Source: Octopus vulgaris (taxonomy: Eukaryota). From it: DNA of 64,000 bases. Every line of letters starts with the position of its first letter. Positions within the stretch are counted from its first letter, which is position 1. Made by a program: the position numbers and the translations under genes. Below, one piece after another: positions 17,357 through 64,000 of this stretch. The notes under the pieces were generated by a model. That model saw only the letters and a list, made by a program, of their open reading frames with translations. It did not search any database and had not been told where the DNA came from. The DNA lies in NCBI GenBank assembly GCA_951406725.2, contig OX597816.1:174468001-174532000 (forward strand), in the 5' to 3' direction.

Positions 17357-17978
17357 AAACTTTGGTCGTAGAACAAACAACAGATATAAGGTCATCCACC
17401 TAACATATCACATCTCGAATATTTAATCACAGAATGCTTTTTCTTACATATAGAACACAGATGCATAAAATCACAGGAGATGAAACATAATTCATTTAGA
17501 CAAGCATATAAGAGAAATGTGTGAGTACAGTCTATTGCGATTAAAAATAATAGTTAATACTTTAGCGACTAAAAAAAAGAAAGAAAATTTTTTTAAACAT
17601 TAAAACATCTAGGATAATAAATATATAAAAATATAAAAATACATATATATAGGAAACATATAAGTAGATAATATATAAGATAAGATAAAAGTTCATTGAT
17701 TAGAAATATTTTCAATTAAAAATTACTTTTTAAGATAAGGGGAAATGTTTATAATGTTTAAAAAAAGTTTTTTTCTTTTTTTTTTAGTTGCTAAAGTATT
17801 AATTATTAATTTTTAATCACGATAGACTATACTCACACATTTTTCTTATATGCTTGTCTAAATGAGTTATGCATCTGTGTTCTATATGTAAGAAAAAGCA
17901 TTATGTGATAAAATGTTCGAGATGTGATATGTTAGGTGGATGACCTTATATTTGTTGTTTGTTCTATGACCAAAGTTT
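17357..17978. repeat. Diverged inverted repeat (foldback) with ~250-bp arms
   Basis: AAACTTTGGTCGTAGAACAAACAACAGATATAAGGTCATCCACC is mirrored by GGTGGATGACCTTATATTTGTTGTTTGTTCTATGACCAAAGTTT, with an AT-rich spacer. Confidence 0.85.
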
Positions 17979-17989
17979 ACTATATATAT

Positions 17990-20463
17990 ATGATAACTGG
18001 AGGTTTCTATGGGACAATCTGCTGAGAGCCACTGACCAGATCTGTGGATGGAGCAAAGTCCCATCTCAACCCAAGGTAATGTGGTGGTGGAACAATGTGG
18101 TTGACAGGGCTGTTAGACAAAAGAAACAGGCTTGGAGGGACTGGAAGAACGGAAGTAGCAGGGAATTGTATCAGACTGCCAGAAGGGAAGCTAGGAGACA
18201 GGTTTATTTAGTCAGAGGGGAAGCAGATAAGAAAAAATTTGCCAACGTTCTGTGCCGTGAGGACCAAAGACTTGAAGTATTTCGTGTTGCAAGACAGTGC
18301 GTGAGAGAGAATCGTGATGTTGTAGGAGAGAAATGTGTCCGTATGGATGATGGTTCACTTGCACTAAATGAGGCTGCAAAGAGAGAGGTTTGGAGATGCC
18401 ACTATACAATGTTGCTCAATAAAGAGAATGAAAGGGAGAAAGAGAGTCAACCCAACAGAGTTAAAGCAATCAAGAGTATGAAGGCAGGGAAAGCCCCAGG
18501 CCCATCAGGAATCACTGCAGAGATGCTCAAAATATCTGGCAGTGTTGGCTATAGCCTACTCACCCATATAGTTAACCAGGTGATATATGAAGGAGTCATA
18601 CCCAATGACTGGTGTAGCAGCTACAAAAGTAAAGGTGACACCCTAGATACAAATAATTACAGAGGTATCAAGTTGTTGGATCAAGTAATGAATGTCACAG
18701 AGAAGGTCATAGCCCAACTGATTAGAGAGAGAGTCAACCTAGATGAGATGCAGTTTGGGTTCGTGCCAGGGAAAAGTACCACTGATGCTATATTTCTGGT
18801 AAGACAGCTGCAGGAGAAATACCTAGCCAAAGATAAGCCCCTGTACCTGGCTTTCGTTGACATGGAGAAAGCCTTCGACAGGGTCCCCCGATCCCTTATC
18901 TGGTGGTCAATGAGGAAACTAGGGATAGATGAATGGTTAGTAAGAGCTGTGCGAGCCATGTACAGGGACGCTGTTAGTAAGGTGAGGGTTGGCAACAAGT
19001 ACAGTGAAGAATTCCGGGTAGAGGTAGGGGCCCACCAAGGTTCAGTCCTCATCCCCCTCCTATTTATCATAGTCCTCCAGGCAATAACGGAGGAATTCAA
19101 GACAGGATGCCCTTGGGAGCTCCTCTATGCTGATGACCTTGCTCTAATTGCTGATAGTGATCAGAACTGGAGGAGAAGTTTCAGGTGTGGAAGCCAGGAT
19201 TAGAATCGAAGGGCCTTAGAGTCAACCTAGCTAAAACCAAAGTCCTAATAAGTAGGAAGGTAGACAAATCACAAATCCCTTCAGGTAGATGGCCCTGCTC
19301 GATCTGTATAAAAGGCGTGGGTAGTAACTCTATAAGATGCACCAAGTGTAAGCTATGGACACATAAGAGGTACAGCAATATCAAAGGAAGGCTAACTAGG
19401 AAGATAGTCTTTGTATGTGGCAGATGCTCAGTAGCAATAAACACTGAAAATGTGCAGAGACCAACTTTCGGCACATTCCAGGGAGACAAACTAGAAGTAG
19501 TTGAGAGCTTCCGTTACCTAGGTGACCAAGTCAGTAGCGGGATAGGGTGTGCTGAAAGTGTAACTGCTAGAGTAAGAATAGCCTGGGCAAAGTTCAGAGA
19601 GCTCTTACCTCTGCTGGTGACTAAAGGCCTCTAGCTCAGAGTAAAAGGCAGACTGTATGACGCATGTGTACAAACAGCCATGCTACATGGCAGTGAAACA
19701 TGGGCTGTGACTGCTGAGGATATGTGTAAGCTCGCAAGAAATGAAGCCAGTATGCTCTGATGGATGTGTAATGTCAGTGTTCATACTCGACAGAGTGTAA
19801 GTATCTTGAGAGAAAAGTTGAACCTAAGAAGCATCAGTTGTGGTGTGCAAGAGAGACATTTGCGCTGGTAAGGTCATGTGACGAAAATGGATGAAGATAG
19901 TTGTGTGAAAAAGTGCCACACCCTAGCGGTTGAGGGAACCTGTGGAAGAGGTAGACCCAGGAAAACCTGGGACGAGGTGGTGAAGCACAACCTTCGAACT
20001 TTAGGTCTCACCGAGGAAATGACTAGTGACTGAGACCTTTGAAAGTATGCTGTGTGTGAGAAGACCTGGCAGGACAAGTGAGACCATAACCCGTGGCCTC
20101 TACCTGGGTTGTAGTCAGTCCACTTATGCATACCTTTCCTTCTTGGGACACAAAACTCTACTTGCGAAGACCTGTTGAGGCAAGGGAAATTGAAATCGAT
20201 TAAAATCAATGGAAATTGTAGCTGAGAAACCAGTGCTGGTGGCACGTAAGAGAACCATCCGAACGTGGCCGTTGCCAGTACCACCCCGACTGGCCTCCGT
20301 GCTGGTGGCATGTAAAAAGCACCATCCAATCATGGCCGTTTGCCAGCCTCGTCTGGCACCTGTGCCAGTGGCATGTAAAAAGCACCCACTACACTCACGG
20401 AGTGGCTGGTGTTAGGAAGGGCATCCAGCCGTAGAAACATTGCCAGATCATGATGATGATGAT
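17990..20463 (+). mobile_element. RTE-clade LINE, 5'-truncated, RT nearly intact, with a PHD-like zinc finger and (GAT)n tail
   Basis: 414-aa ORF with GKAPGPSG, NYRGIKLL, QFGF, FVDMEKAFDRV, GAHQG and LLYADDL. Next frame has CSIC...CTKC...H...CGRC and FRYLG. 3' UTR carries GTGCTGGTGGCAC-type repeats. Confidence 0.9.
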
Positions 20464-36384: not shown

Positions 36385-36864
36385 AGACCTGGTAGAAACA
36401 GCAGCCAAATCTCCCTCAAATCACACCTTACTGTCTTATGTATGTATATATATATGAGCCAATGAGGGGGACCTCTACATGATAGCTAGACCTGGTAGAA
36501 ATAGCAGCCAAATTTCCCCCAAATCACACCTTACTGTCTTATCTATGTATATATGTATGTATGAGCCTATGAGGGAGACCACTACATGGCAGCTAGACCT
36601 GGTAGAAATAGCAGCCAAATTTCCCCCAAATCACACCTTACTGTCTTATCTATGTATATATGTATGTATGAGCCTATGAGGGAGACCCCTACATGGCAGC
36701 TAGACCTGGTAGAAATAGCAGCCAAATTTCCCCCAAATCACACCTTACTGTCTTATCTATGTATATATGTATGTATGAGCCTATGAGGGAGACCCCTACA
36801 TGGCAGCTAGACATGGTAGAAATAGCAGCCAAATCTCCCTCAAATCACACCTTACTGTCTTATC
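36385..36864 (+). repeat. Minisatellite with a 107-bp unit, ~4.5 copies
   Basis: The unit AGACCTGGTAGAAATAGCAGCCAAAT... recurs; ORF-track starts 36479, 36586, 36693 and 36800 give the 107-bp period. Confidence 0.95.
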
Positions 36865-37430
36865 TTTCTGCTACTTGGATATAGGTGTTATATTCGTCGT
36901 AAAAAACTTTCCTGTCACACACTCACGCACACGCACACACACACACACACACACACGCACCCTCACACACACACACACACGCACACACCCACACACACCC
37001 ACTCACACACACGCACGTTAGCTTACAATTTTATTTATATATTTGCGTGTCTGTGTGGAAAGAGGAAGTGGGAGGCAGAGTGAAAGAATCACTCACTACA
37101 GTAAGTCAATTACTTTCATCTTATTCGTTGCCCACTGTGTGTGTGCGTTTGCGTGTGCTGTAAACCAGACTAAGAAAAGCATTTGACACACACACCAGAA
37201 TGTGAGTTTTCTGTAAATTTTGCTTAACTGGAGTTTAAATTTTAAAAACTGGACCTGGCATGACGCGATGCATTGTACTCTTAAAAATGCAAGGTAAATT
37301 GTAATTGAAGAAATCCTATATTGTAGATTTGTATAACTCCCAAAGGGAGGCAGATAAAATCTGCCTTTTATAATAAGAGATATATATATATATATACCGG
37401 AGTAAACACATAAATGTGAAACAAGGTGGA

Positions 37431-37544: not shown

Positions 37545-37783
37545 ATAAGTATATTAAAAGGGGTCTGTGGGAAAAATTTTAATAAAAGGGGTCCCTAGCA
37601 GTGGAAAGGTATATATATATATATATATATATTCAATCAAAGCAATTAAGATTCAAGTCAATTCCAATGAATTTACTTGAATGTGGTACTTAACTTAGAT
37701 GCACCAGAAAAACAATATGGTGTTAACCATACAGTAATGTGGGGTGATTATAAACGAGAAAGAAGCAACAAGAATGGATTAGT

Positions 37784-37874
37784 TTTTAGTACAATTGTTT
37801 CATACAAAGACAGACTTTATTACAAGTTGCAAAAATTGCAGCAGATAAAAGTGGCCCGTACTCATCAGCTAAAA
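37784..37874 (-). ncRNA. Hammerhead motif (family B), mirror copy
   Basis: Reverse complement of 38679-38769. Confidence 0.7.
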
Positions 37875-38678
37875 TACATGTGAGTTCTCCAAACATCTTA
37901 GTGGGTAAGGTTATACTCATGAAGTATTGAAGATAATTTCATTAAAGGCAGTTTTAGGCTGCAAACAGATTTCCAAAGTTCCTTAATGATGATGCACAGT
38001 CTTATCCCAGGTTCTTAAAAGCTTATTAGCTTCACAGAGAAGGTGAATTAATCCGTAGTGTAGATTTAAATTTCCAGAGATATGAGGAGGATGCACAGAC
38101 TTATCACAGGTTTTTAAAAACTTATTAGCTTCACAGAAAAGGTGAATTAATCCGTAGTGTAGATTTAAATTTCCAGAGATATGAAGAGGAATTTCATACT
38201 CACAGACGATGAATTTATCCATTGTTAATCCACAATCATTTCATGCTATATGATAAGGTATTTGCCACCTTACTGTTCTCCATGCAAAACTGCTTATCAT
38301 ATAGCATGAAATGATTGTGGATTAACAATGGATAAATTCATCGTCTGTGAGTATGAAATTCCTCTTCATATCTCTGGAAATGTAAATCTTCACTATGGAT
38401 TAATTCACCTTTTCTGTGAAGCTAATAAGTTTTTAAAAACCTGTGATAAGTCTGTGCATCCTCCTCCTCATATCTCTGGAAATTTAAATCTACACTACGG
38501 ATTAATTCACCTTCTCTGTGAAGCTAATAAGCTTTTAAGAACCTGGGATAAGACTGTGCATAATCATTAAGGAACTTTGGAAATCTGTTTGCAGCCTAAA
38601 ACTGCCTTTAATGAAATTATCTCCAATACTTCATGAGTATAACCTCACCCACTAAGATGTTTAGAGAATTCACATGTA

Positions 38679-38769
38679 TTTTAGCTGATGAGTACGGGCC
38701 ACTTTTATCTGCTGCAATTTTTGCAACTTGTAATAAAGTCTGTCTTTGTATGAAACAATTGTACTAAAA
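38679..38769 (+). ncRNA. Hammerhead motif (family B)
   Basis: TTTTAG-CTGATGA-GTAC...GTAT-GAA-ACAATTGT-A-CTAAAA. Confidence 0.75.
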
Positions 38770-38839
38770 ACTAATCCATTCTTGTTGCTTCTTTCTCGTA
38801 TATATATATATATATATATACATGCACATATGTGGAAAA

Positions 38840-40789: not shown

Positions 40790-41185
40790 TCCATATATAA
40801 AAGTGAAGCAGTGTGAGTGTCTGTCTCCTAGGATTTAGATTCCTAACTACTCCCACATTTTGCGGTGCAATTTAACCAAAACCGGGTATCTTATAGTCGT
40901 GATTCATATCGAGCCCTTCTGGGTATTAGCACGCGTCTACGATGAGTCTACGATTTAAAAAAAAATTACCATCATTTTTTTCCATTTTAATGCATTTTTA
41001 CGCTATTATATAAGGGAAGTAACTCTCTAAAAATGTCTACGATGAAACAACGATTTTTAAAAAATTTACCATCATTTTTTTCCCATTTTTAATGCATTTT
41101 TTTGCTATTTTTTGGCTATAACTCTAAAAATGCTTATATAGTTATTTCCCTTACAAACCCGAGCAACGCCGGGCGATACTGCTAG
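40790..41185 (+). mobile_element. Non-autonomous Helitron H1 variant with an internal duplication
   Basis: H1 body and 3' hairpin-CTAG|T. The TCTACGATGA...TTTAATGCATTTT block is present twice. Confidence 0.85.
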
Positions 41186-42504
41186 TACGGGATAAATGTC
41201 AAATTCGCAGTTAGTTGCAAGTTAATTGTGGCCCCCTCCCTAAATCGGAAATCTAAACTCAAGGGAGATGATACACAATGCAAGCACTGTTATCTCCCCT
41301 GCATTATCAACATAGCTGAGTTTGGAGATTTGGCCAGCCCATACTGCCTTTTAGTTTACAGTTGGTCCTTATACAAATGAAGAATGCAGGAAACTTGTCT
41401 CACTTACCAAGACCCGAAAGTACGTTCGTGCACGCACGCGTGCGCATACACACGTTAGATTAGCGATGAGGAACACGAGAATGAGTATAAGATTTATTAA
41501 TTAAACTACAAAAAATGGATCTTTTCCGCTTAGCTGAACTTTTTGAAATTTTAAAATTAGGTGAAAATTTTCAAATTTGGTGTATTGATGTAATTTTTCA
41601 CGCTGAACGTCAGGGCGTAATTCACTTGTTCTAGAAAATTTTTTTTAAAAGTTTAAAGGTTGGTAATTTTTACCCAGGTAAGAAAACAGGATTTGGAAGC
41701 TGTCGCTTTGTACCTGAAGACAGATCATCTCAAACATTAGTCTTTTCGTTTTCTTCACATCGTAAAATTGCTTCCACAGTATGAACTAATTTTATAAGTT
41801 ATATTGACACAGAATATCTCTAGATTCCTTGAACTCGACTGTTTTATCATTTCAAATATAATTTAGTACTATTGGTGATACCCTTTCCTTTAAAATGATT
41901 TTATATCTGAAGTCACATTCTAGAATGGATTGAAGAAGTTAGGAAAATTAGGAAATAAATCTTATGGCAACTAGTCTTGCTTTATTCAACATTTTCAGAA
42001 AGAAATCAAAGAAGAAAAAGCTGCCTCAACAAATTCCTCCAAGAAATACCAGACTAACCAATGATACTAGATACATTTTGGCGAACTCCCTGCATTAGTG
42101 GATATGATGTCCTAAAACATGACTTAAAAGACAACACTGGCAAAGTTAGACAAGGCCTGAGCCAACAATGGCCAAACTCTAAGTTATTATGAACCAATTA
42201 GCTTTAATTAAGAAACCCAACTATTGATTATTTATTTATTCAGAGCTCTTTTCTTTTTTTTTTTTTAAGCTAAAGTAGTTAAAATAAAAGAGCTGTTATA
42301 TCTTGGTGCAGAAGAAATGACATCCTCATTACATTTCAGTCAGTTGTCCCATATTTTAACCTCACATCTATTAAGATATTCTACTGATGGGAAGCCAGAA
42401 AATATATTTTTAGTGATACTTTATGAGGTGTGGACTGTGTCCATAGCTTAAGACTGATAAGAGTAATACAATGGATGTTCTGTTTAAACACCTTTAAGTT
42501 GATA

Positions 42505-48039: not shown

Positions 48040-50947
48040 TGAAACGAACTTCGTGTGAGTGAATATCTTGTCTTGTACTTTCGGGGTACAAGAAAGCAAT
48101 CACTCACTAGCCGTTGCTTTAATAATCCAGAATCTCTGCCCGTCAGAAAACAACAAGACGCAGACGTAAAATATATATATACTACTTTATTCTCTTTCTT
48201 GGTAACAGTAACAATAAGTGTGTTATCTGATGTCCTTGGTTCTGGGCGTGCAAGGCTGAAAGTTAATCGATTGTAATATTTACAATGTTCAGCCGCCAAA
48301 ACAGAAAGGGTCAAAATGGCGTCCGGAGGAAGAAGATGATGTCTGCAACAATCCAGGTCAAAGGCCTTTTGGTAAGGACTGCTAGAAGCAAGTTCGTACG
48401 GAGAGAAAATATGCGTGACCGTCTCCTTCAATCGCTGCTGTCCCAAGTCCCCGCTGCTGCTGCCAGCAGTCAAACGTTCTACGGCCCCTGACCGCCGCCT
48501 TCAATCGCTGCTGTCCCAAGTCCCCGCTGCTGCTGCCAGCGGTCAAATGTTCTACGGCCCCTTGCCTCGCTAACTCCTACGTAGGCAATAGGGTTCTTCT
48601 TCCGGTGCTTCGTGCATGCGCGAGAGGGCCCTTCCTTTCTGTGCCTTGGTGAAGGCACCAACACGCACGAATTTAGAAAATGGACGGTGCGCGCACGCGC
48701 ACCGTTATAGGGTCACTACAAGGCTCCCCTCCAGTGCGTACGCACGAAAGGAAACTTATTGTAGTGACTGCAAAACTCAAGGTGGACACCAGATAACCAA
48801 ATAGCACACAATAATATAATGGCAAAATTTATAACATACACAAGAAATTTACTAAAGGAAAAAGAGAAAAAATACTCAATGAGCAAAAATCAAGAGTGCA
48901 TGCATGAAAGTGTATACGTCACAAAGTATAGAGCCTTCCGCTGTAGGAAGCGGAGGGAAAGCAAAACTCACAGTCAATGAACCTAGGCGAAATTAAATCC
49001 AACTTCTCTAAAGGTGGTTGATCCTGCAAAATAGCAGTTAAATCAATTGCTGCAGGAGAGGAAATGGAATTGACAGAAGCTCGCTAGTAACACAAAAGGC
49101 AAAAGTGCAAACATGCTGGTGTGATGCGCGACACAGATAATTTTCTGTTAATTACGTGACCAACAGTGATCTAACAGGGAAAAATAATTACGCCTAAACA
49201 TGGCGCAGCGCATGTGAACATCCGACGTCCTATGAGTCAGGAAAAACTAAGCTACTGCAAACGTGTTGCAAAAAACAAGGCAATACACGTGCGAAGCAAG
49301 GCGCATGAAATGCAATAGTGCTTGCCAGACCGAAAAACAGCAAGAATATGCCAGTGGTTGAGCGATTATATGCCTCGTTCGTACAGGAACAAAAGTATGA
49401 CATGCTGGCGCGTTATAATGGACAAACAACCCTCTCTATGTATACGTGACCGACCTAGGGTCTATAGAAATGAGGGGTGTCCACAAAAGGCAAATTTAGC
49501 ATGGAACAAACAAGCGAGAAAAAGCATGTGTGACGTATGTATGTGAGAGATAGCATTTATGTGTGTGTACGTGTGTGCGACAAAATACATACAAGGTGAA
49601 TGCGAGCAAAATATAAAAACAGCGCATAGAAAAAATGTCTCTCAAGTGCTATTCCAGACAAGAGTTAATTTACCAGTCTCTAATAGCCTGATGCACAATA
49701 GCAGTTCGTTCTGTAACAGAATGTTGAGATCACAAATGCAGATGCCGGTTGAACACATATCGTGTAGCGGTTGTGGCTTCAATGCTGTGACAGGTTAACT
49801 GGAACAGAAGAATCTCATAGATAGACGGTGCTGTTTATCCTTGGTGTGCATATGCACAAAACAGCGTGCACGCTAAAGTTCCGTGAGTTGCTATGTACAT
49901 CTTGTGGAGGTCGATGGTGTTGAAAGGCGACGGTGGTGGAGGAAGGCGACTGTAGTGGACTTGAGACAACATCGTTCTTAGTGATGATGGCGATGAAGAT
50001 AGCGACGACGTGAAGTAGAAAAACGACGATGGCAATGACGAAGGTGGAGAAAAAGCATCGAATATATGATGGCGTCCGTCATCATGGCTGTAGAAGAAGA
50101 AAGAGGCTCCTTCTACAACTGTTTGTAGTGGCCGGAAACAAATCATCGAAAGATGATGCGTAGAGTTAAATCGTGTTCCGACTTCGCAGAAAAACTGGAT
50201 TTTTTTTTTGTTGATAAGTGATCTCTGGTTTTAGACCAGAATCACGTCAGGGGGTCACCACTGTAACGAGCTTGATGTGAGTGAAGTGAATATCTTGTTT
50301 TGTACTTTCGGGGTACAAGAAAGCAATCACTCACTAGCCGTTGCTTTAATAATCCAGAATCTCTGCCCGTCAGAAAACAACAAGACGCAGATGTAAAATA
50401 TATATATACTACTTTATTCTCTTTCTTGGTAACAGTAACAATAAGTGTGTTATCTGATGTCCTTGGTTCTGGGCGCGCAAGGCTGAAAGTTAATCGATTG
50501 TAATATTTACAATGTTCAGCCGCCAAAACAGAAAGGGTCAAAATGGCGTCCGGAGGAAGAAGATGATGTCTGCAACAATCCAGGTCAAAGGCCTTTTGGT
50601 AAGGACTGCTAGAAGCAAGTTCGTACGGAGAGAAAATATGCGTGACCGTCTCCTTCAATCGCTGCTGTCCCAAGTCCCCGCTGCTGCTGCCAGCGGTCAA
50701 ACGTTCTACGGCCCCTGACCGCCGCCTTCAATCGCTGCTGTCCCAAGTCCCCGCTGCTGCTGCCAGCGGTCAAACGTTCTACGGCCCCTTGCCTCGCTAA
50801 CTCCTACATAGGCAATAGGGTTCTTCTTCCGGTGCTTCGCGCATGCGCGAGAGGGCCCTTCCTTTCTGTGCCTTGGTGAAGGCACCAACACACGCGAATT
50901 TAGAAAATGGACGGTGCGCGCGCGCGCACCGTTATAGGGTCACTACA
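48040..50947 (-). mobile_element. Young non-autonomous LTR retrotransposon (LTRs 50947-50262 and 48720-48040)
   Basis: Near-identical ~680-bp direct repeats with TG...CA ends. PBS TGGTGACCCC(CT)GACGTGAT (tRNA-Trp-like) at ~50241-50260; PPT CTGGAGGGGAGCC; TATA on both flanks. Confidence 0.9.
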
Positions 50948-52542: not shown

Positions 52543-52923
52543 TCTCTCTCTATATAAACGGCAGTTTGTCTGTGTGTGTTTCTGTGTGTCTGTTTGCTTG
52601 TACCCTCACCCTGACCACGGCTTTCAACCGATTCTGATGAAACTTGACACACACATAGCCCAATGTCATAATTCAAAACTAACGCAGCGAAAATTTTGAA
52701 AAGTTCCCCCAGTTCTGAAAAGAATCGATAAATTCGACATGGGGTCGACAATTAGAAACACAAACAGCAAACTGTCTAGGGGACGCAACTCCACCTTTTT
52801 TAACTAAAAAAAATTTACCATCATTTTTTTCCATTTTTTTGCTATTTTTTGGCTATAACTCTCTAAAAATGCTTTATAGTTATTTCCCTTACAAACCTGA
52901 GCAACGTCGGGCGATACTGCTAG
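52543..52923 (+). mobile_element. Non-autonomous Helitron with the H1 3' end but a different 5' body
   Basis: A|TCTCTCTCTATATAAACGGCAG...GAGCAACGTCGGGCGATACTGCTAG|T. Confidence 0.85.
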
Positions 52924-54310
52924 TCATGACTAAAACTTCATAATTTGATTACTTGTTTTTGAGTCTTGTCTTGCTACACTTTGGTTACATTGATGATATC
53001 TTTTTTGCCTGAAAAGGATCACAGGATAGTTTAGTTAACTTCTTGCATTTCTGTGATTGCTTCACAAATCAACTATGGCTTTAAGTCCAATATAAAATTC
53101 TCATCAAGTGTCTCAAAAACCAGCATCAAATTTTTGAACACAAAAGTCAAGTTTTCAGAAGCATGAATAGAGTTATTTTGCAAACCCATATCCAACATTT
53201 ATCTTCATTGCTGTTCCAATCATCAACACCATACAATTAAGTCAAATCCAAAGTCGTAGTTTTTGAGGATAAAATGGATTTGTACTGATATAAGGGAAGC
53301 AGGCAAATGCTTTTGTGCACCATTGTGTCAAACACACTTATAATGAATCATAATTAAAGGAAATTGCAAATGACAGAAAGGAAAGTCAAATCAGAAAGGA
53401 AAGTCAAACTTTCATGCCTAATTTTAGCAGCCAAAATAAAACTCATGACTGAATTCTTTTAGTGATTAACTAATACCAAAATTTTTCTGGCATTTCAAAA
53501 GTGTTGCAAGAAAGTTATCAACATGTTTCAGAAAAATATCCCTGCTTCAAGCAAATATTTCCTCATTCACCTATTATAGCCTTTAGACACAATAAAAATA
53601 TAAGACAATTATTAATCAATAAAAAATAAAACAATTCCATTGTACACTGAAAAAAGCTACAAGAGAGGTAGGCCCTGATCAATATGCAACAACGTGAGTG
53701 AAGTCAACTCTATCACAAATTATAACAGAAATGTTATGATTTATATGGAAGGTAGGATCTGTAAAGGTTCCCATTTGGAGTACACAGTGGAATGCACAAA
53801 ACACAACTTGGTTTATGTTGGTTACACAACAGAGAAATTGAATAAAAGATTCAAAGAGCATAGGTATAATGTTAGGTACAATAACAGGAGTTTGATGGAA
53901 CTCGCTAAACATTTTACATCAAACAGCAGTAAACTTGAGGAATATCTGAAAGAACACATTCTTAGAGAACATTCTGACTCCACTGCACTTTCAGTTCTCA
54001 AAATATATGAGGATAAATATATTTGTGAACTAGCAGAGATACTTGGCATTGTTCAGAATTAAAATGGCATATTTTGTATATATATATTACATTCATGTTG
54101 ACAACAAAACATTTGTGGAGTAAATGTTAAAGATTTGCATGAATGACAATTTGAATTTAGCACACCAAATTAGACAGAATTATCATTTTTATAAGAATGG
54201 GATGGATCATATCTGAAAGCAGCTCCAGGTGTTGTGAAGAACGAATTTGTACATGATCTGTTTCTGAGAGCTATTCTATTGGACCTCTGTGTAATGTGGC
54301 ATGCTAAACA

Positions 54311-57300
54311 TCATTTTAATGGTTCAGCATTAAGTGCTGCAACAAGCCTTTGCTGATCTTGAGAAAGTCTCATCTCCTTTGTCGCTTGGGACTCCATCTG
54401 ATGTGCTGCAACAAGCCTTTGCTGATCTTGAGAAAGTCTCATCTCCCTTCTCTCTTGGGACTCCATCTGATGTGCTGCAACAAGCCTTTGCTGATCTTGA
54501 GAAAGTCTCATCTCCCTTCTCTCTTGGGACTCCATCTGATGTGCTGCAACAAGCCTTTGCTGATCTTGAGAAAGTCTCATCTCCCTTCTCTCTTGGGACT
54601 CCATCTGATGTGCTGCAACAAGCCTTTGCTGATCTTGAGAAAGTCTCATCTCCCTTCTCTCTTGGGACTCCATCTGATGTGCTGCAACAAGCCTTTGCTG
54701 ATCTTGAGAAAGTCTCATCTCCTTCTCTCTTGGGACTCCATCTGATGTGCTGCAACAAGCCTTTGCTGATCTTGAGAAAGTCTCATCTCCTTTTCTCTTG
54801 GGACTCCATCTGATGTGCTGCAACAAGCCTTTGCTGATCTTGAGAAAGTCTCATCTCCCCTTCTCTCTTGGGACTCCATCTGATGTGCTGCAACAAGCCT
54901 TTGCTGATCTTGAGAAAGTCTCATCTCCTTCTCTCTTGGGACTCCATCTGATGTGCTGCAACAAGCCTTTGCTGATCTTGAGAAAGTCTCATCTCCCTTC
55001 TCTCTTGGGACTCCATCTGATGTGCTGCAACAAGCCTTTGCTGATCTTGAGAAAGTCTCATCTCCTTCTCTCTTGGGACTCCATCTGATGTGCTGCAACA
55101 AGCCTTTGCTGATCTTGAGAAAGTCTCATCTCCCTTCTCTCTTGGGACTCCATCTGATGTGCTGCAACAAGCCTTTGCTGATCTTGAGAAAGTCTCATCT
55201 CCCTTCTCTCTTGGGACTCCATCTGATGTGCTGCAACAAGCCTTTGCTGATCTTGAGAAAGTCTCATCTCCCTTTCTCTCTTGGGACTCCATCTGATGTG
55301 CTGCAACAAGCCTTTGCTGATCTTGAGAAAGTCTCATCTCCCTTCTCTCTTGGGACTCCATCTGATGTGCTGCAACAAGCCTTTGCTGATCTTGAGAAAG
55401 TCTCATCTCCCTTCTCTCTTGGGACTCCATCTGATGTGCTGCAACAAGCCTTTGCTGATCTTGAGAAAGTCTCATCTCCCTTCTCTCTTGGGACTCCATC
55501 TGATGTGCTGCAACAAGCCTTTGCTGATCTTGAGAAAGTCTCATCTCCCTTCTCTCTTGGGACTCCATCTGATGTGCTGCAACAAGCCTTTGCTGATCTT
55601 GAGAAAGTCTCATCTCCCTTCTCTCTTGGGACTCCATCTGATGTGCTGCAACAAGCCTTTGCTGATCTTGAGAAAGTCTCATCTCCCTTTCTCTCTTGGG
55701 ACTCCATCTGATGTGCTGCAACAAGCCTTTGCTGATCTTGAGAAAGTCTCATCTCCCTTCTCTCTTGGGACTCCATCTGATGTGCTGCAACAAGCCTTTG
55801 CTGATCTTGAGAAAGTCTCATCTCCCTTCTCTCTTGGGACTCCATCTGATGTGCTGCAACAAGCCTTTGCTGATCTTGAGAAAGTCTCATCTCCTTTTGC
55901 TCTCTTGGGACTCCATCTGATGTGCTGCAACAAGCCTTTGCTGATCTTGAGAAAGTCTCATCTCCCTTCTCTCTTGGGACTCCATCTGATGTGCTGCAAC
56001 AAGCCTTTGCTGATCTTGAGAAAGTCTCATCGCCCTTCTCTCTTGGGACTCCATCTGATGTGCTGCAACAAGCCTTTGCTGATCTTGAGAAAGTCTCATC
56101 TCCCTTTCTCTCTTGGGACTCCATCTGATGTGCTGCAACAAGCCTTTGCTGATCTTGAGAAAGTCTCATCTCCCTTCTCTCTTGGGACTCCATCTGATGT
56201 GCTGCAACAAGCCTTTGCTGATCTTGAGAAAGTCTCATCTCCCTTCTCTCTTGGGACTCCATCTGATGTGCTGCAACAAGCCTTTGCTGATCTTGAGAAA
56301 GTCTCATCTCCTTCTCTCTTGGGACTCCATCTGATGTGCTGCAACAAGCCTTTGCTGATCTTGAGAATCTCTCCTTCTTGGACTCCATCCTGATGTGCAA
56401 CAGCCTTTGCTGATCTTGAGAAAGCTCATCCCTCTCTTGGGACTCCATCTGATGTGCTGCAACAAGCCTTTGCTGATCTTGAGAAAGTCTCATCTCCCTT
56501 CTCTCTTGGGACTCCATCTGATGTGCTGCAACAAGCCTTTGCTGATCTTGAGAAAGTCTCATCTCCCTTCTCTCTTGGGACTCCATCTGATGTGCTGCAA
56601 CAAGCCTTTGCTGATCTTGAGAAAGTCTCATCTCCCTTCTCTCTTGGGACTCCATCTGATGTGCTGCAACAAGCCTTTGCTGATCTTGAGAAAGTCTCAT
56701 CGCCCTTCTCTCTTGGCACTCCATCTGATGTGCTGCAACAAGCCTTTGCTGATCTTGAGAAAGTCTCATCTCCTTTCTCTCTTGGGACTCCATCTGATGT
56801 GCTGCAACAAGCCTTTGCTGATCTTGAGAAAGTCTCATCTCCTTCTCTCTTGGGACTCCATCTGATGTGCTGCAACAAGCCTTTGCTGATCTTGAGAAAG
56901 TCTCATTGCCCTTCTCTCTTGGGACTCCATCTGATGTGCTGCAACAAGCCTTTGCTGATCTTGAGAAAGTCTCATCTCCTTTCTCTCTTGGGACTCCATC
57001 TGATGTGCTGCAACAAGCCTTTGCTGATCTTGAGAAAGTCTCATCGCCCTTCTCTCTTGGGACTCCATCTGATGTGCTGCAAAGCATCTTGAGAAAGTCC
57101 ACGCCCTTGCTGATCTCTGATGTGCTGCAACAAGCCTTTGCTGATCTTGATCTCATCGCCCTTCTCTCTTGGGACTCCATCTGATGTGCTGCAACAAGCC
57201 TTTGCTGATCTTGAGAAAGTCTCATCTCCCTTTCTCTCTTGGGACTCCATCTGATGTGCTGCAACAAGCCTTTGCTGATCTTGAGAAAGTCTCATCTCCC

Positions 57301-60300
57301 TTCTCTCTTGGGACTCCATCTGATGTGCTGCAACAAGCCTTTGCTGATCTTGAGAAAGTCTCATCGCCCTTCTCTCTTGGGACTCCATCTGATGTGCTGC
57401 AACAAGCCTTTGCTGATCTTGAGAAAGTCTCATCTCCTTTCTCTCTTGGGACTCCATCTGATGTGCTGCAACAAGCCTTTGCTGATCTTGAGAAAGTCTC
57501 ATCGCCCTTCTCTCTTGGGACTCCATCTNNNNNNNNNNNNNNNNNNNNNNNNNNNNNNNNNNNNNNNNNNNNNNNNNNNNNNNNNNNNNNNNNNNNNNNN
57601 NNNNNNNNNNNNNNNNNNNNNNNNNNNNCTTGAGAAAGTCTCATCTCCTTTCTCTCTTGGGACTCCATCTGATGTGCTGCAACAAGCCTTTGCTGATCTT
57701 GAGAAAGTCTCATCTCCCTTCTCTCTTGGGACTCCATCTGATGTGCTGCAACAAGCCTTTGCTGATCTTGAGAAAGTCTCAGACTCCATCTGATGTCTCA
57801 TCAAGCCCTCTTGAGAAAGTCTCATTCCCTTCTCTCTTGGGACTCCATCTGATGTGCTGCAACAAGCCTTTGCTGATCTTGAGAAAGTCTCATCTCCCTT
57901 CTCTCTTGGGACTCCATCTGATGTGCTGCAACAAGCCTTTGCTGATCTTGAGAAAGTCTCATCTCCTTCTCTCTTGGGACTCCATCTGATGTGCTGCAAC
58001 AAGCCTTTGCTGATCTTGAGAAAGTCTCATCTCCTTTCTCTCTTGGGACTCCATCTGATGTGCTGCAACAAGCCTTTGCTGATCTTGAGAAAGTCTCATC
58101 TCCCTTCTCTCTTGGGACTCCATCTGATGTGCTGCAACAAGCCTTTGCTGATCTTGAGAAAGTCTCATCTCCCTTCTCTCTTGGGACTCCATCTGATGTG
58201 CTGCAACAAGCCTTTGCTGATCTTGAGAAAGTCTCATCTCCTTCTCTCTTGGGACTCCATCTGATGTGCTGCAACAAGCCTTTGCTGATCTTGAGAAAGT
58301 CACATCTCCTTTCTCTCTTGGGACTCCATCTGATGTGCTGCAACAAGCCTTTGCTGATCTGAGAAAGTCTCATCTCCTTTCTCTCTTGGGACTCCATCTG
58401 ATGTGCTGCAACAAGCCTTTGCTGATCTTGAGAAAGTCTCATCTCCCTTCTCTCTTGGGACTCCATCTGATGTGCTGCAACAAGCCTTTGCTGATCTTGA
58501 GAAAGTCTCATCTCCTTTCTCTCTTGGGACTCCATCTGATGTGCTGCAACAAGCCTTTGCTGATCTTGAGAAAGTCTCATCTCCTTTGTCTCTTGGGACT
58601 CCATCTGATGTGCTGCAACAAGCCTTTGCTGATCTTGAGAAAGTCTCATCTCCTTTCTCTCTTGGGACTCCATCTGATGTGCTGCAACAAGCCTTTGCTG
58701 ATCTTGAGAAAGTCTCATCTCCTTCTCTCTTGGGACTCCATCTGATGTGCTGCAACAAGCCTTTGCTGATCTTGAGAAAGTCTCATCTCCTTCTCTCTTG
58801 GGACTCCATCTGATGTGCTGCAACAAGCCTTTGCTGATCTTGAGAAAGTCTCATCTCCTTCTCTCTTGGGACTCCATCTGATGTGCTGCAACAAGCCTTT
58901 GCTGATCTTGAGAAAGTCTCATCTCCCTTCTCTCTTGGGACTCCATCTGATGTGCTGCAACAAGCCTTTGCTGATCTTGAGAAAGTCTCATCTCCCTTCT
59001 CTCTTGGGACTCCATCTGATGTGCTGCAACAAGCCTTTGCTGATCTTGAGAAAGTCTCATCTCCTTTGTCTCTTGGGACTCCATCTGATGTGCTGCAACA
59101 AGCCTTTGCTGATCTTGAGAAAGTCTCATCTCCTTTCTCTCTTGGGACTCCATCTGATGTGCTGCAACAAGCCTTTGCTGATCTTGAGAAAGTCTCATCT
59201 CCTTTCTCTCTTGGGACTCCATCTGATGTGCTGCAACAAGCCTTTGCTGATCTTGAGAAAGTCTCATCTCCCTTCTCTCTTGGGACTCCATCTGATGTGC
59301 TGCAACAAGCCTTTGCTGATCTTGAGAAAGTCTCATCTCCTTTCTCTCTTGGGACTCCATCTGATGTGCTGCAACAAGCCTTTGCTGATCTTGAGAAAGT
59401 CTCATCTCCCTTCTCTCTTGGGACTCCATCTGATGTGCTGCAACAAGCCTTTGCTGATCTTGAGAAAGTCTCATCTCCTTTCTCTCTTGGGACTCCATCT
59501 GATGTGCTGCAACAAGCCTTTGCTGATCTTGAGAAAGTCTCATCTCCCTTCTCTCTTGGGACTCCATCTGATGTGCTGCAACAAGCCTTTGCTGATCTTG
59601 AGAAAGTCTCATCTCCTTCTCTCTTGGGACTCCATCTGATGTGCTGCAACAAGCCTTTGCTGATCTTGAGAAAGTCTCATCTCCCTTCTCTCTTGGGACT
59701 CCATCTGATGTGCTGCAACAAGCCTTTGCTGATCTTGAGAAAGTCTCATCTCCTTTCTCTCTTGGGACTCCATCTGATGTGCTGCAACAAGCCTTTGCTG
59801 ATCTTGAGAAAGTCTCATCTCCTTTCTCTCTTGGGACTCCATCTGATGTGCTGCAACAAGCCTTTGCTGATCTTGAGAAAGTCTCATCTCCCTTTCTCTC
59901 TTGGGACTCCATCTGATGTGCTGCAACAAGCCTTTGCTGATCTTGAGAAAGTCTCATCTCCTTTCTCTCTTGGGACTCCATCTGATGTGCTGCAACAAGC
60001 CTTTGCTGATCTTGAGAAAGTCTCATCTCCTTCTCTCTTGGGACTCCATCTGATGTGCTGCAACAAGCCTTTGCTGATCTTGAGAAAGTCTCATCTCCCT
60101 TCTCTCTTGGGACTCCATCTGATGTGCTGCAACAAGCCTTTGCTGATCTTGAGAAAGTCTCATCTCCTTTCTCTCTTGGGACTCCATCTGATGTGCTGCA
60201 ACAAGCCTTTGCTGATCTTGAGAAAGTCTCATCTCCTTTCTCTCTTGGGACTCCATCTGATGTGCTGCAACAAGCCTTTGCTGATCTTGAGAAAGTCTCA

Positions 60301-62085
60301 TCTCCTTCTCTCTTGGGACTCCATCTGATGTGCTGCAACAAGCCTTTGCTGATCTTGAGAAAGTCTCATCTCCTTTCTCTCTTGGGACTCCATCTGATGT
60401 GCTGCAACAAGCCTTTGCTGATCTTGAGAAAGTCTCATCTCCTTCTCTCTTGGGACTCCATCTGATGTGCTGCAACAAGCCTTTGCTGATCTTGAGAAAG
60501 TCTCATCTCCTTTCTCTCTTGGGACTCCATCTGATGTGCTGCAACAAGCCTTTGCTGATCTTGAGAAAGTCTCATCTCCTTCTCTCTTGGGACTCCATCT
60601 GATGTGCTGCAACAAGCCTTTGCTGATCTTGAGAAGTCTCATCTCCTTTGTCTCTTGGGACTCCATCTGATGTGCTGCAACAAGCCTTTGCTGATCTTGA
60701 GAAAGTCTCATCTCCTTTCTCTCTTGGGACTCCATCTGATGTGCTGCAACAAGCCTTTGCTGATCTTGAGAAAGTCTCATCTCCTTCTCTCTTGGGACTC
60801 CATCTGATGTGCTGCAACAAGCCTTTGCTGATCTTGAGAAAGTCTCATCTCCTTTCTCTCTTGGGACTCCATCTGATGTGCTGCAACAAGCCTTTGCTGA
60901 TCTTGAGAAAGTCTCATCTCCTTCTCTCTTGGGACTCCATCTGATGTGCTGCAACAAGCCTTTGCTGATCTTGAGAAAGTCTCATCTCCCTTCTCTCTTG
61001 GGACTCCATCTGATGTGCTGCAACAAGCCTTTGCTGATCTTGAGAAAGTCTCATCTCCTTTCTCTCTTGGGACTCCATCTGATGTGCTGCAACAAGCCTT
61101 TGCTGATCTTGAGAAAGTCTCATCTCCTTTCTCTCTTGGGACTCCATCTGATGTGCTGCAACAAGCCTTTGCTGATCTTGAGAAAGTCTCATCTCCCTTC
61201 TCTCTTGGGACTCCATCTGATGTGCTGCAACAAGCCTTTGCTGATCTTGAGAAAGTCTCATCTCCTTTCTCTCTTGGGACTCCATCTGATGTGCTGCAAC
61301 AAGCCTTTGCTGATCTTGAGAAAGTCTCATCTCCTTTCTCTCTTGGGACTCCATCTGATGTGCTGCAACAAGCCTTTGCTGATCTTGAGAAAGTCTCATC
61401 TCCCTTCTCTCTTGGGACTCCATCTGATGTGCTGCAACAAGCCTTTGCTGATCTTGAGAAAGTCTCATCTCCTTTCTCTCTTGGGACTCCATCTGATGTG
61501 CTGCAACAAGCCTTTGCTGATCTTGAGAAAGTCTCATCTCCCTTCTCTCTTGGGACTCCATCTGATGTGCTGCAACAAGCCTTTGCTGATCTTGAGAAAG
61601 TCTCATCTCCTTCTCTCTTGGGACTCCATCTGATGTGCTGCAACAAGCCTTTGCTGATCTTGAGAAAGTCTCATCTCCTTTCTCTCTTGGGACTCCATCT
61701 GATGTGCTGCAACAAGCCTTTGCTGATCTTGAGAAAGTCTCATCTCCTTCTCTCTTGGGACTCCATCTGATGTGCTGCAACAAGCCTTTGCTGATCTTGA
61801 GAAAGTCTCATCTCCTTTGTCTCTTGGGACTCCATCTGATGTGCTGCAACAAGCCTTTGCTGATCTTGAGAAAGTCTCATCTCCCTTCTCTCTTGGGACT
61901 CCATCTGATGTGCTGCAACAAGCCTTTGCTGATCTTGAGAAAGTCTCATCTCCCTTCTCTCTTGGGACTCCATCTGATGTGCTGCAACAAGCCTTTGCTG
62001 ATCTTGAGAAAGTCTCATCTTTTCTCTCTTGGGACTCCATCTGATGTGCTGCAACAAGCCTTTGCTGATCTTGAGAAAGTCTCAT
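54311..62085 (-). CDS. Putative poly-STPR repeat coding segment (frameshifted in this assembly)
   Basis: The frame reads (ESQERREMRLSQDQQRLVAAHQM)n, a 23-aa repeat with E-S/T-x-E-x-R-x-x-R-L spacing. It begins TAG|ATG at 62085 and ends ...LVAALNAEPLK*. Confidence 0.4.
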
Positions 62086-62088
62086 CTA
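54332..62088. repeat. Tandem array with a 69-bp unit, ~110 copies, 100-N gap at 57529-57628
   Basis: Unit GTGCTGCAACAAGCCTTTGCTGATCTTGAGAAAGTCTCATCTCCCTTCTCTCTTGGGACTCCATCTGAT. Variation is almost confined to the CT tract. Confidence 0.99.
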
Positions 62089-62097
62089 CATTAACCA

Positions 62098-62240
62098 ATT
62101 TGGAAATACCTTGCAGTTGCTGTGATAATTATGAATTTTTGTTAATTGAATGGTAGATGTAAATTAACCAAATATAAGCAATTTGGAAATACCTTGCAAC
62201 TGCTGTGATAATTATGAACTGTTAATTGAATGGTAGATGT
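62098..62240. repeat. ~60-bp direct duplication abutting the array
   Basis: AATTTGGAAATACCTTGCA...GTTAATTGAATGGTAGATGT at ~62098 and ~62180. Confidence 0.85.
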
Positions 62241-62742
62241 TCATTTTTATATAACTTGGACGTTCCACATAAATGCTTTTTGTCAAGAGTTTGTGTAGAT
62301 GTATGCGTGTGTTCAATAACATGCATAATGGGCATGCAAACACACACATACTCACAGACACATACACATTCATATACAAAATGTGATGATATGCACACAT
62401 ACACTCTCACATACATACAGTAAGGGAGACACATACAGACATACATTCACACATGTCAGTAGTCACATGTGTATATGTAGATGTATGTGTATGTTTAATA
62501 ATGTACCTAACACAGAAACAAACACACAGTCAGAGAAACATACACACTCATACACCCACACATATACACTCAAAAACACATACACACTCATATATGTGAT
62601 GTCGTCATCATCGTGGTTTGAAATGTCCTTTACTATCCCATACATATTGAATGTGCAAACACACACACAAAATGAAAGAATAAAAGTGAAACAATATTAC
62701 ACAACGGTTTTTGGTAGCGGGAGAAGTGTAATTAGTGTATTT

Positions 62743-63170
62743 GGATCTTTTCGGTTTGAACGGCAGTTTTAACATAATTTCTATGTAACTAAAAAATTTT
62801 AAACTTTGTATACTGGTAGAATGTGTTTATAAAACATCTTTTTCTCTTGGCTTTATTGAGAAAATTCTATAGTTTGTAAGATATTTGTTGCTTTTTTTCT
62901 TCAATTTCTGCAATTTCAACCAATCACTGACATGTATTGAGGTAAAAAAAACATTCTGTGCCGTATGAATATGTCCCTCGTTTAAGAAACCGATTGGGTT
63001 TATTTACATTTGTGAAGAAAAAAAGATACCCTTCTCCCACCCCTAACCCTAACTAACCCTAACCCTAAAACAGACTGAAATGCAAAGGATCGATACAAGG
63101 GTCATAATTATGGGTGACAATTTCATATGACACCGCTAGAAAAAGACTGCCGTTCAAACCGAAAAGATCC
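62743..63170. mobile_element. MITE with a 25-bp TIR, related to the 32743 element
   Basis: GGATCTTTTCGGTTTGAACGGCAGT / ACTGCCGTTCAAACCGAAAAGATCC. Shares AAACTT-GTATACTGGTAGAATGT and AACCAAT with the 32743 arms. Internal CCCTAA repeats; no clear TSD. Confidence 0.8.
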
Positions 63171-64000
63171 CAAAAATATTTACACATGACAAAATTGAAA
63201 TACACTGAAATCAATTTTTCAGAGAGAGAGTGAGAGAGTATGTGTGTGTGAGAGAGTGAGTAAAAGAAACAGATACCTAAAAATGTGAAAGTGAGAAAAA
63301 GAAAGAGAAGTGATAAATATAAGAGAGAGAGAAAAGGGAGATTATCGCTTGAAAACTGCAGAAGTCAAAGGGAGAGAATCAGTTGAAAACTGCAGTTTTT
63401 AGAGAAAAACCCATGTGAAAAACTTTTTTTCAAGGTCGGTTTCTTGCATGACGTGGGAGCTCTGGGCAAAATGTTATATTGCATGACCATCCATGGCATA
63501 TAAGTAATGTGTGGGTAAAGTTTGGTGAAAATCGGTTGAAAACTGTAGAAAAGCATACATATTACACACACACAGTATACATCCTTTGTTTTTACACTCC
63601 ATATAGATTACTAGCATCATGCCTGAAAGAATGAACAAAATGACAGAATTCTCTCACATTTACTCAAAATATTTTGACTAAACATTCACTTTCCTGCATT
63701 CTTTTTCTCTTCTTTCATCTAGTTTTCTTTTCCTTGTTTCCAGTTTTGAAAAAGCAAAAATTGATGATATTTTGTCTAAAAAGGAATGCAGGATATTCAG
63801 TTCAAATTTTGAATTCTTGTACTTCTGCATATTTTTCATTTTTCATTTTGAACCTGAGAAAGACAGACAGACAGACTTTTGAAAAATTATTCAGTTCAAT
63901 AAATAGAGTCAGTCTCTAATTACTTCAAATTCTATCATGCTCTGCTTCATAATCATCATCATCATTATCATCTTCATCATCATCATCATCATAATCATCA

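Follow-up and report, generated by a model that had tools for sequence, protein, structure and literature searches.

The defining marks of STPRs are Glu1, Thr/Ser2 and Arg9 in a period of 23 residues, and in silkworm FMBP-1, the residues that contact DNA are R6, R9, L10, M13, S14, Y16, A17, R20 and L21 (PMC4856987). The domain has been reported as almost confined to HLE1 Helitrons, elements marked by a TC start, a CTAG end and insertion between A and T (Li et al. 2024, PMC11417382). Satellites that arise from short arrays inside Helitrons have been described as a common case (PMC12628747), the 166-bp minisatellite of Heli2Xen in Xenopus being a Helitron-borne example (PMC12001565), and an expansion of Helitrons has been reported in a repeat annotation of octopus, in whose main text no word begins with 'satellite' (PMC13282606). 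Here, we analyse a 69-bp tandem array of ~110 near-identical copies (~7.8 kb; positions 54334-62087) in a 64,000-nucleotide stretch of the Octopus vulgaris genome, hereafter the window (assembly GCA_951406725.2, contig OX597816.1, 174,468,001 to 174,532,000, forward strand). The Helitron in which the array sits is decayed, internally deleted and non-autonomous, and its family is very large and dispersed. We consider it very probable that the unit matches the 23-codon STPR at the start of the Helitron transposase, that the array expanded at its present site from a few units to ~110, probably by unequal exchange, and that no protein is made from it.

The ends of the element and its dispersal carry the assignment to Helitrons. 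On the minus strand, the window copy begins with TC from 63607, preceded by A at 63608, and the final G of its terminal CTAG lies at 54030, followed by T at 54029. An earlier reading of the letters alone, which we call the sequence-only reading, had taken the segment that follows the array, ending in LNAEPLK*, for a unique tail; a search of the genome (2.8 Gb, 227 contigs) with two units plus this tail instead yielded 523 candidates, and the 40 of them that were scored contained 165 matches, on many chromosomes. Among 19 of these loci that were fetched for comparison, the 3' end could be matched in 14, after exclusion of a spurious row for L020, and reads CTAG followed by T in nine, TTAG followed by T in two and GTAG followed by T in one, with two ambiguous. 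The element thus combines the TC start, CTRR end and A/T insertion of HLE1 with dispersed, RepHel-related copies.

The frame of the array connects it to the transposase. Beyond LNAEPLK*, the same frame continues with AAFRYDPSHSY, a second stop and then a Cys pair, and this remnant matches the RepHel protein P0006 (E 6.5e-7) and residues 82-124 of the RepHel open reading frame (ORF) at locus L051 (E 5.9e-5, both by tblastn). A longer, 160-codon remnant in copy L025 matched in the genome at all 150 places scored, of 2,492 candidates, with stops in most, and gave 33 matches among 231 candidate database proteins, 19 with PF14214 (Helitron_like_N) and five with PF21107 (STPRs); one RepHel protein found in this way matches the structure of Helraiser (E 2e-156). 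The intact RepHel of L051, beside which the locus L051:2197-6618 (G000:C5) is listed, was matched by 20 of 30 family loci, in 19 of the 20 only to about residue 234, short of the Rep domain at 361; L018 also retains helicase pieces. A search of the window and of the 10 kb that follow it found no Rep or helicase remnant, and the window copy, which keeps only the stretch matching residues 82-124, with two stops, is not an autonomous Helitron.

The unit itself is exactly 23 codons long, as the sequence-only reading had stated together with the minus-frame peptide. The commonest form reads ESQERREMRLSQDQQRLVAAHQM (39 units), and a variant with K at position 6 accounts for a further 24. Glu1, Thr/Ser2 and Arg9 recur in the unit family at a strict 23-residue period: of the 82 distinct units collected at 25 loci, 60 keep E1, 71 keep S2, 72 keep R9 and 79 keep L10, and position 17, L in the window, is H in 67. 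Against the PF21107-positive repeats of protein P0005, the window peptide gives a gap-free, in-register alignment (43/108 identities, 40%; E 1e-10). When three units were tiled and compared with 1,000 shuffles of the unit, they scored better at p<0.05 on the N-termini of 17 of 20 partly inter-related RepHel proteins, the best match being in register in all 20; the other 13 of the 33 proteins were excluded because their N-termini offered no usable repeats. Moreover, the 28-unit array of the sister copy L019 reaches 61.7 bits on PF21107, as a sum over 14 stretches, against a cut-off of 27. Because this sister array passes the cut-off and the window peptide aligns in register with RepHel STPRs, the unit is best read as a diverged Helitron STPR, recognised by descent and not by a direct profile match. 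Three of the nine FMBP-1 contact residues (R6, R9 and L10) are kept in the window unit, R6 being the position occupied by K in the second variant. STPRs as a class form helices that sit in the major groove of DNA and cover 4 bp each.

The PF21107 scan works in this genome, where it found 50 places among 150 scored, as against none in 14 control genomes. Pfam matches of the unit to Ribosomal_L32p, Lactonase and RAG2_PHD were short, spurious and of a kind typical of repeats. The first eight PF21107 loci of the genome were rejected as relatives, with neither a DNA nor a tblastn match to the window element, and belong to other families. The best PF21107 match of the genome, L031:1440-1890 (G000:C3:151372159), lies in an ORF with four more FMBP-1-like STPR units and no RepHel motif behind them; similar matches stand ~14 and 27 kb away, at 151358577 and 151344967, and L031 and these neighbours may form a tandem set of host STPR genes.

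Long arrays of this kind are not confined to the window. Among the 19 fetched loci, which were compared with wide flanks and had been chosen by similarity rank, so that they are no census of long arrays, 16 have 3-8 units, while ~16 are present in L024, 28 in L019 and 66 in L012, with a distinct unit sequence in each. L019:2558-4489 is an independent expansion in the window's family with a 686-codon open frame and a stop just ahead of its first unit, and L012:228-4890 is another, with ~66 units, three of which contain stops. A second giant array, L056:1095-9002 (G000:C30:18776594-18784501), belongs to a different Helitron family: it has 114.7 units of 69 bp without a gap, is preceded by a frameshifted N-terminus and joins a helicase fragment, and ten of its units score 124 bits on PF21107. 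These long arrays (28, ~66 and ~115 units), with different sequences and in two Helitron families, show repeated independent expansion without sign of coding constraint. Growth after insertion is suggested by the differences in unit sequence among expanded arrays, together with copy L011, in which the window's unit forms a row of only six.

L011 lies 1.07 Mb away in inverted orientation and preserves a fuller layout, with the native ATG, an N-terminal stretch and then the six units. The window and L011 are 98-100% identical across the tract given in Table 1 and 85-87% identical outside it, with unrelated flanks, a pattern that points to probable conversion between two old insertions; a segmental duplication was rejected, as no collinear flanks exist within ~10 kb per side. 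Both stops are common to the two copies. The first stop is present in a contig of the public DNA run X1, possibly made from the sample behind the assembly, and the second is present in contigs of both X1 and X2; one edge of the tract is spanned in the window's form by contigs of X1, X2 and X5. Since X5, labelled as another organism, also contains the 3' junction of the element, the insertion likely predates the split from that organism.

Within the window, the assembly does not fix the true size of the array, because a gap of 100 N, missed by the sequence-only reading, splits it in two. Tandem Repeats Finder (TRF) counts 47.0 copies on one side of the gap and 2.2 + 62.3 on the other, with 95-98% matches. 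Unit anchors define 107 intervals, of which 72 measure 69 bp, 22 measure 68, six 70, one 67, one 71, and five are longer. That frame breaks concentrate in one tract was correctly noticed before: 28 of the 30 off-length single units are altered in one A/G tract, where 19 represent the intersection and five the union of the two common variants. Arrays without the two-variant tract are more regular, with exact intervals in 27/27 for L019, 60/65 for L012 and 105/110 for L056. This off-length pattern fits consensus error from misregistered reads, in line with the sequence-only reading, and it also fits real slippage followed by amplification; no indels are listed at a 3% share in public sequencing runs, in a family-wide pile-up that dilutes the array and so leaves 68- and 70-bp units undecided.

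We propose that a parent element was deleted internally, that the resulting non-autonomous family spread with 3-8 units per copy, and that the copies then decayed. In the window copy, a few units would have been homogenised, undergone conversion with L011 and expanded in place, the amplification probably proceeding through unequal exchange between near-identical neighbouring units, and translation of the product would be absent. Secondary structure of the unit was considered as a driver of the expansion and rejected (z -0.01).

Table 1. Parts of the array-bearing element, in window coordinates
Feature	Position	Strand	Remarks
Entire Helitron copy (HLE1-type), non-autonomous and internally deleted, including array and nested insert	54030..63607	-	Ends set by alignment with other copies
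5' end: TC after A, then TA-rich stretch	63560..63607	-	5' region matched in 7/19 fetched loci; A before TC at same boundary in 4/7
MITE-like insert, nested, flanked by terminal inverted repeats of 31 nt	62740..63173	.	Arms 94% complementary; not in copy L011; stands separately from the element in L014 and L029
Tract almost identical to L011, conversion-like	54170..62470	-	Identities inside 302/309, 171/171; outside 208/238, 198/228, 111/130
Rearranged junction	62086..62245	-	Local ~80-bp duplication in place of ~340 bp, which in L011 hold the native start and first two units
Upstream array part	57629..62087	-	~65 units; begins at codon 8 (Met) of the unit; two unit variants mixed, often alternating
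Assembly gap, 100 N	57529..57628	.	Inside array
Downstream array part	54334..57528	-	47 units, one variant predominating
Linker codons and first premature stop	54311..54333	-	TGA at a codon that is sense in most other copies; run X1 contig identical across
RepHel N-terminal remnant, in frame with units	54101..54310	-	Second stop 54172-54170; tblastn; 68% identity to L025 remnant
3' end: decayed hairpin segment and CTAG, then T	54030..54062	-	Alignment with other copies

The sequence-only reading had left two options, a satellite born from a Helitron STPR module and a giant exon for a protein of >2,500 amino acids; the element ends, the same-frame RepHel remnant, L019 and the in-register alignment favour the former, and the giant-exon reading is unsupported. 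As a gene, whether one giant exon or a single-exon unit for a poly-STPR DNA-binding protein, the array would owe all its frame breaks to assembly errors. It does have a unit of exactly 23 codons, 69 bp long in 72 of 102 single units, and E1, S2, R6, R9 and L10 are retained; the off-length units, altered mostly to an intersection or union of variants, do resemble consensus error; and an ATG stands at the array start and a stop at its end, the ATG at 62085 and the in-frame run into LNAEPLK* having been correctly seen before, with the last five units in that frame. The codon periodicity, however, is accounted for by descent from coding repeats, and since four of the six frames of the commonest unit are open, an open frame carries little weight. 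The native start and first units are gone, the present ATG being codon 8 of every unit, at the rearranged junction, which is known from the assembly alone; no pyrimidine tract precedes the AG at the array start, and the ATG is followed by a unit of 67 bp, in which the STPR frame is lost immediately. The terminal stop is a decayed sense codon within the RepHel remnant. Of the FMBP-1 residues that contact DNA, the six towards the C-terminus (M13, S14, Y16, A17, R20 and L21) are all replaced, and no host exon was recognised among the window ORFs, a listing that is not a gene prediction. Among the five distinct changes between window unit variants, none is synonymous, four are non-synonymous and one is a stop; the 66 distinct codon changes of four arrays include 13 synonymous ones, where a synonymous share of 17-27% is expected without selection, and 32 of 97 units from 24 loci of other copies contain a stop. 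With 30 of 102 single units off length, no native start and no synonymous excess, we regard a host poly-STPR gene at this locus as highly improbable. Run X14, which we guess to be RNA, has eight contigs on the stretch, one of them identical to the array unit, and shows neither strand nor transcription. A broader proposal is that Helitron STPR segments recurrently seed long poly-STPR frames, such as those of L019 (686 codons, 28 units), L012 (~66), L056 (~115) and the window (~110), at least one of which has been transcribed or exonised into a many-helix protein that binds the major groove, a birth stage of host STPR factors like FMBP-1; we hold this to be a long shot, for which L019 is a better place than the window locus, though a stop stands just before its first unit.

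Two further explanations concern how the array reached its length. It could largely be a product of assembly around the gap, with a true array much shorter or longer: the 100-N gap lies mid-array, damaged units are found nearby and the mix of variants differs between the two sides. Nevertheless, the 47 and ~65 units on the two sides are each anchored in unique flank, the assembly contains comparable long arrays without a gap (L012, L019 and L056, all free of N), and, as a weak hint, run X2 gives a word depth of 1202 for the array-unit contig versus 12 at the unique flank, a ratio that is not a copy number, so that we find such an assembly product rather unlikely. Aberrant rolling-circle replication during transposition, a process by which tandemisation of Helitron segments has been described (PMC12628747), could instead have multiplied the units before a long array was inserted. 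The element, though, has a single 5' and a single 3' end with no repeated termini, no second locus among 30 fetched copies has the same long array, and L011 has the window's unit in a short row; because of the one pair of ends and the missing second locus among those fetched, we judge this route unlikely, and favour growth in place by unequal exchange.

Several observations weigh against the explanation favoured here. The unit peptides P0001 and P0002 gave no PF21107 match at E values up to 10 in the Pfam scan, a result that speaks against the STPR assignment of the sequence-only reading as a direct family call, and L011 and three repeat frames of L025 gave none either. Likewise, a PDB sequence search with P0002 returned no match to FMBP-1, nor did one with the L051 N-terminus or four L019 units. 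The L019 score is a sum over its 14 stretches, and three of the 20 related proteins in the shuffle test miss p<0.05. No autonomous parent of the exact window family was found; the intact L051 ORF is merely 51% identical and has no PF21107 match. The substitution counts are small. Finally, folding gives no significant 3' hairpin, with z at 0.2 for the window and at 0.0, -0.8 and -1.5 for three copies; L025 and L027 (z -0.8 and -1.5) allow a GC stem to be drawn where one is expected, L028 has none, and that of the window is decayed.

The 5' part of the element contains a nested insert of 434 bp, classed as similar to a miniature inverted-repeat transposable element (MITE; Table 1). Elsewhere in the window, two plus-strand Helitron-like 3' ends at 41137-41186 and 52875-52924 consist of a GC-rich segment followed by CTAG and T, are 96% alike and have hairpin z values of -0.6 and 1.2; the short element with these ends is also present at other loci. 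The window further contains a palindrome of ~1 kb at 37749-38804, with arms 98% complementary and an internal ~100-bp duplication; a 107-bp tandem repeat at 36385-36865 (4.5 copies, 95% matches by TRF); and two copies with 99% identity, 48058-48562 and 50285-50789, which are separated by 2,227 bp and both contain a 73-bp dimer as well as an open frame of 160 codons on the minus strand. Broken reverse-transcriptase-like frames occur at 17944-19634, where we take them to be of the long interspersed nuclear element (LINE) type, and in other stretches.

Both STPRs in Helitrons and Helitron-born satellites are already published, while a satellite derived from transposase coding repeats was not found in the literature searched. 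On STPRs and Helitrons together, the HELIANO paper alone turned up, and none of the titles and abstract openings in a broader literature search described satellites from transposase coding repeats, which subscription papers, Repbase entries or supplements may describe. The arrays reported here illustrate concretely how the coding repeat of a transposase can become satellite DNA; two Helitron families have gone this way at least four times in this genome, and short ancestral copies persist for comparison. Gene predictors and readers alike are liable to take such arrays for giant repeat proteins; expression of any of the long open frames would make it possible to test how the STPRs of Helitrons are linked to those of host transcription factors.

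The window unit shares with the FMBP-1 STPR domain (PDB 5D23; PMC4856987) and PF21107 the 23-residue period and E1, S/T2, E4, R6, R9 and L10 in register, a correspondence that the sequence-only reading had given accurately, as it had FMBP-1 repeat 1, judging by the PDB alignment. Unlike FMBP-1, it has only five of 23 residues identical to that repeat, lacks the C-terminal contacts named above and gives no direct profile match, and in contrast to the four repeats of FMBP-1, the window has ~110 units, known from DNA alone. Like the HLE1 Helitrons with STPRs described in PMC11417382, the window element has a TC start, a CTAG end, an A/T insertion and a derivation from RepHel; unlike them, it is deleted and decayed, its hairpin is degenerate, and its STPR segment exceeds the usual 3-8 units of the family ~20-fold. 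In common with the Helitron and Helentron satellites of PMC12628747 and PMC12001565, a short internal array has grown long and homogeneous between the element ends. Those satellites are not presented in the accounts given there as derived from a transposase frame, whereas the window array, with its 23-codon period, is so derived, and it belongs to a set of arrays that expanded at single loci instead of being carried long by many copies.

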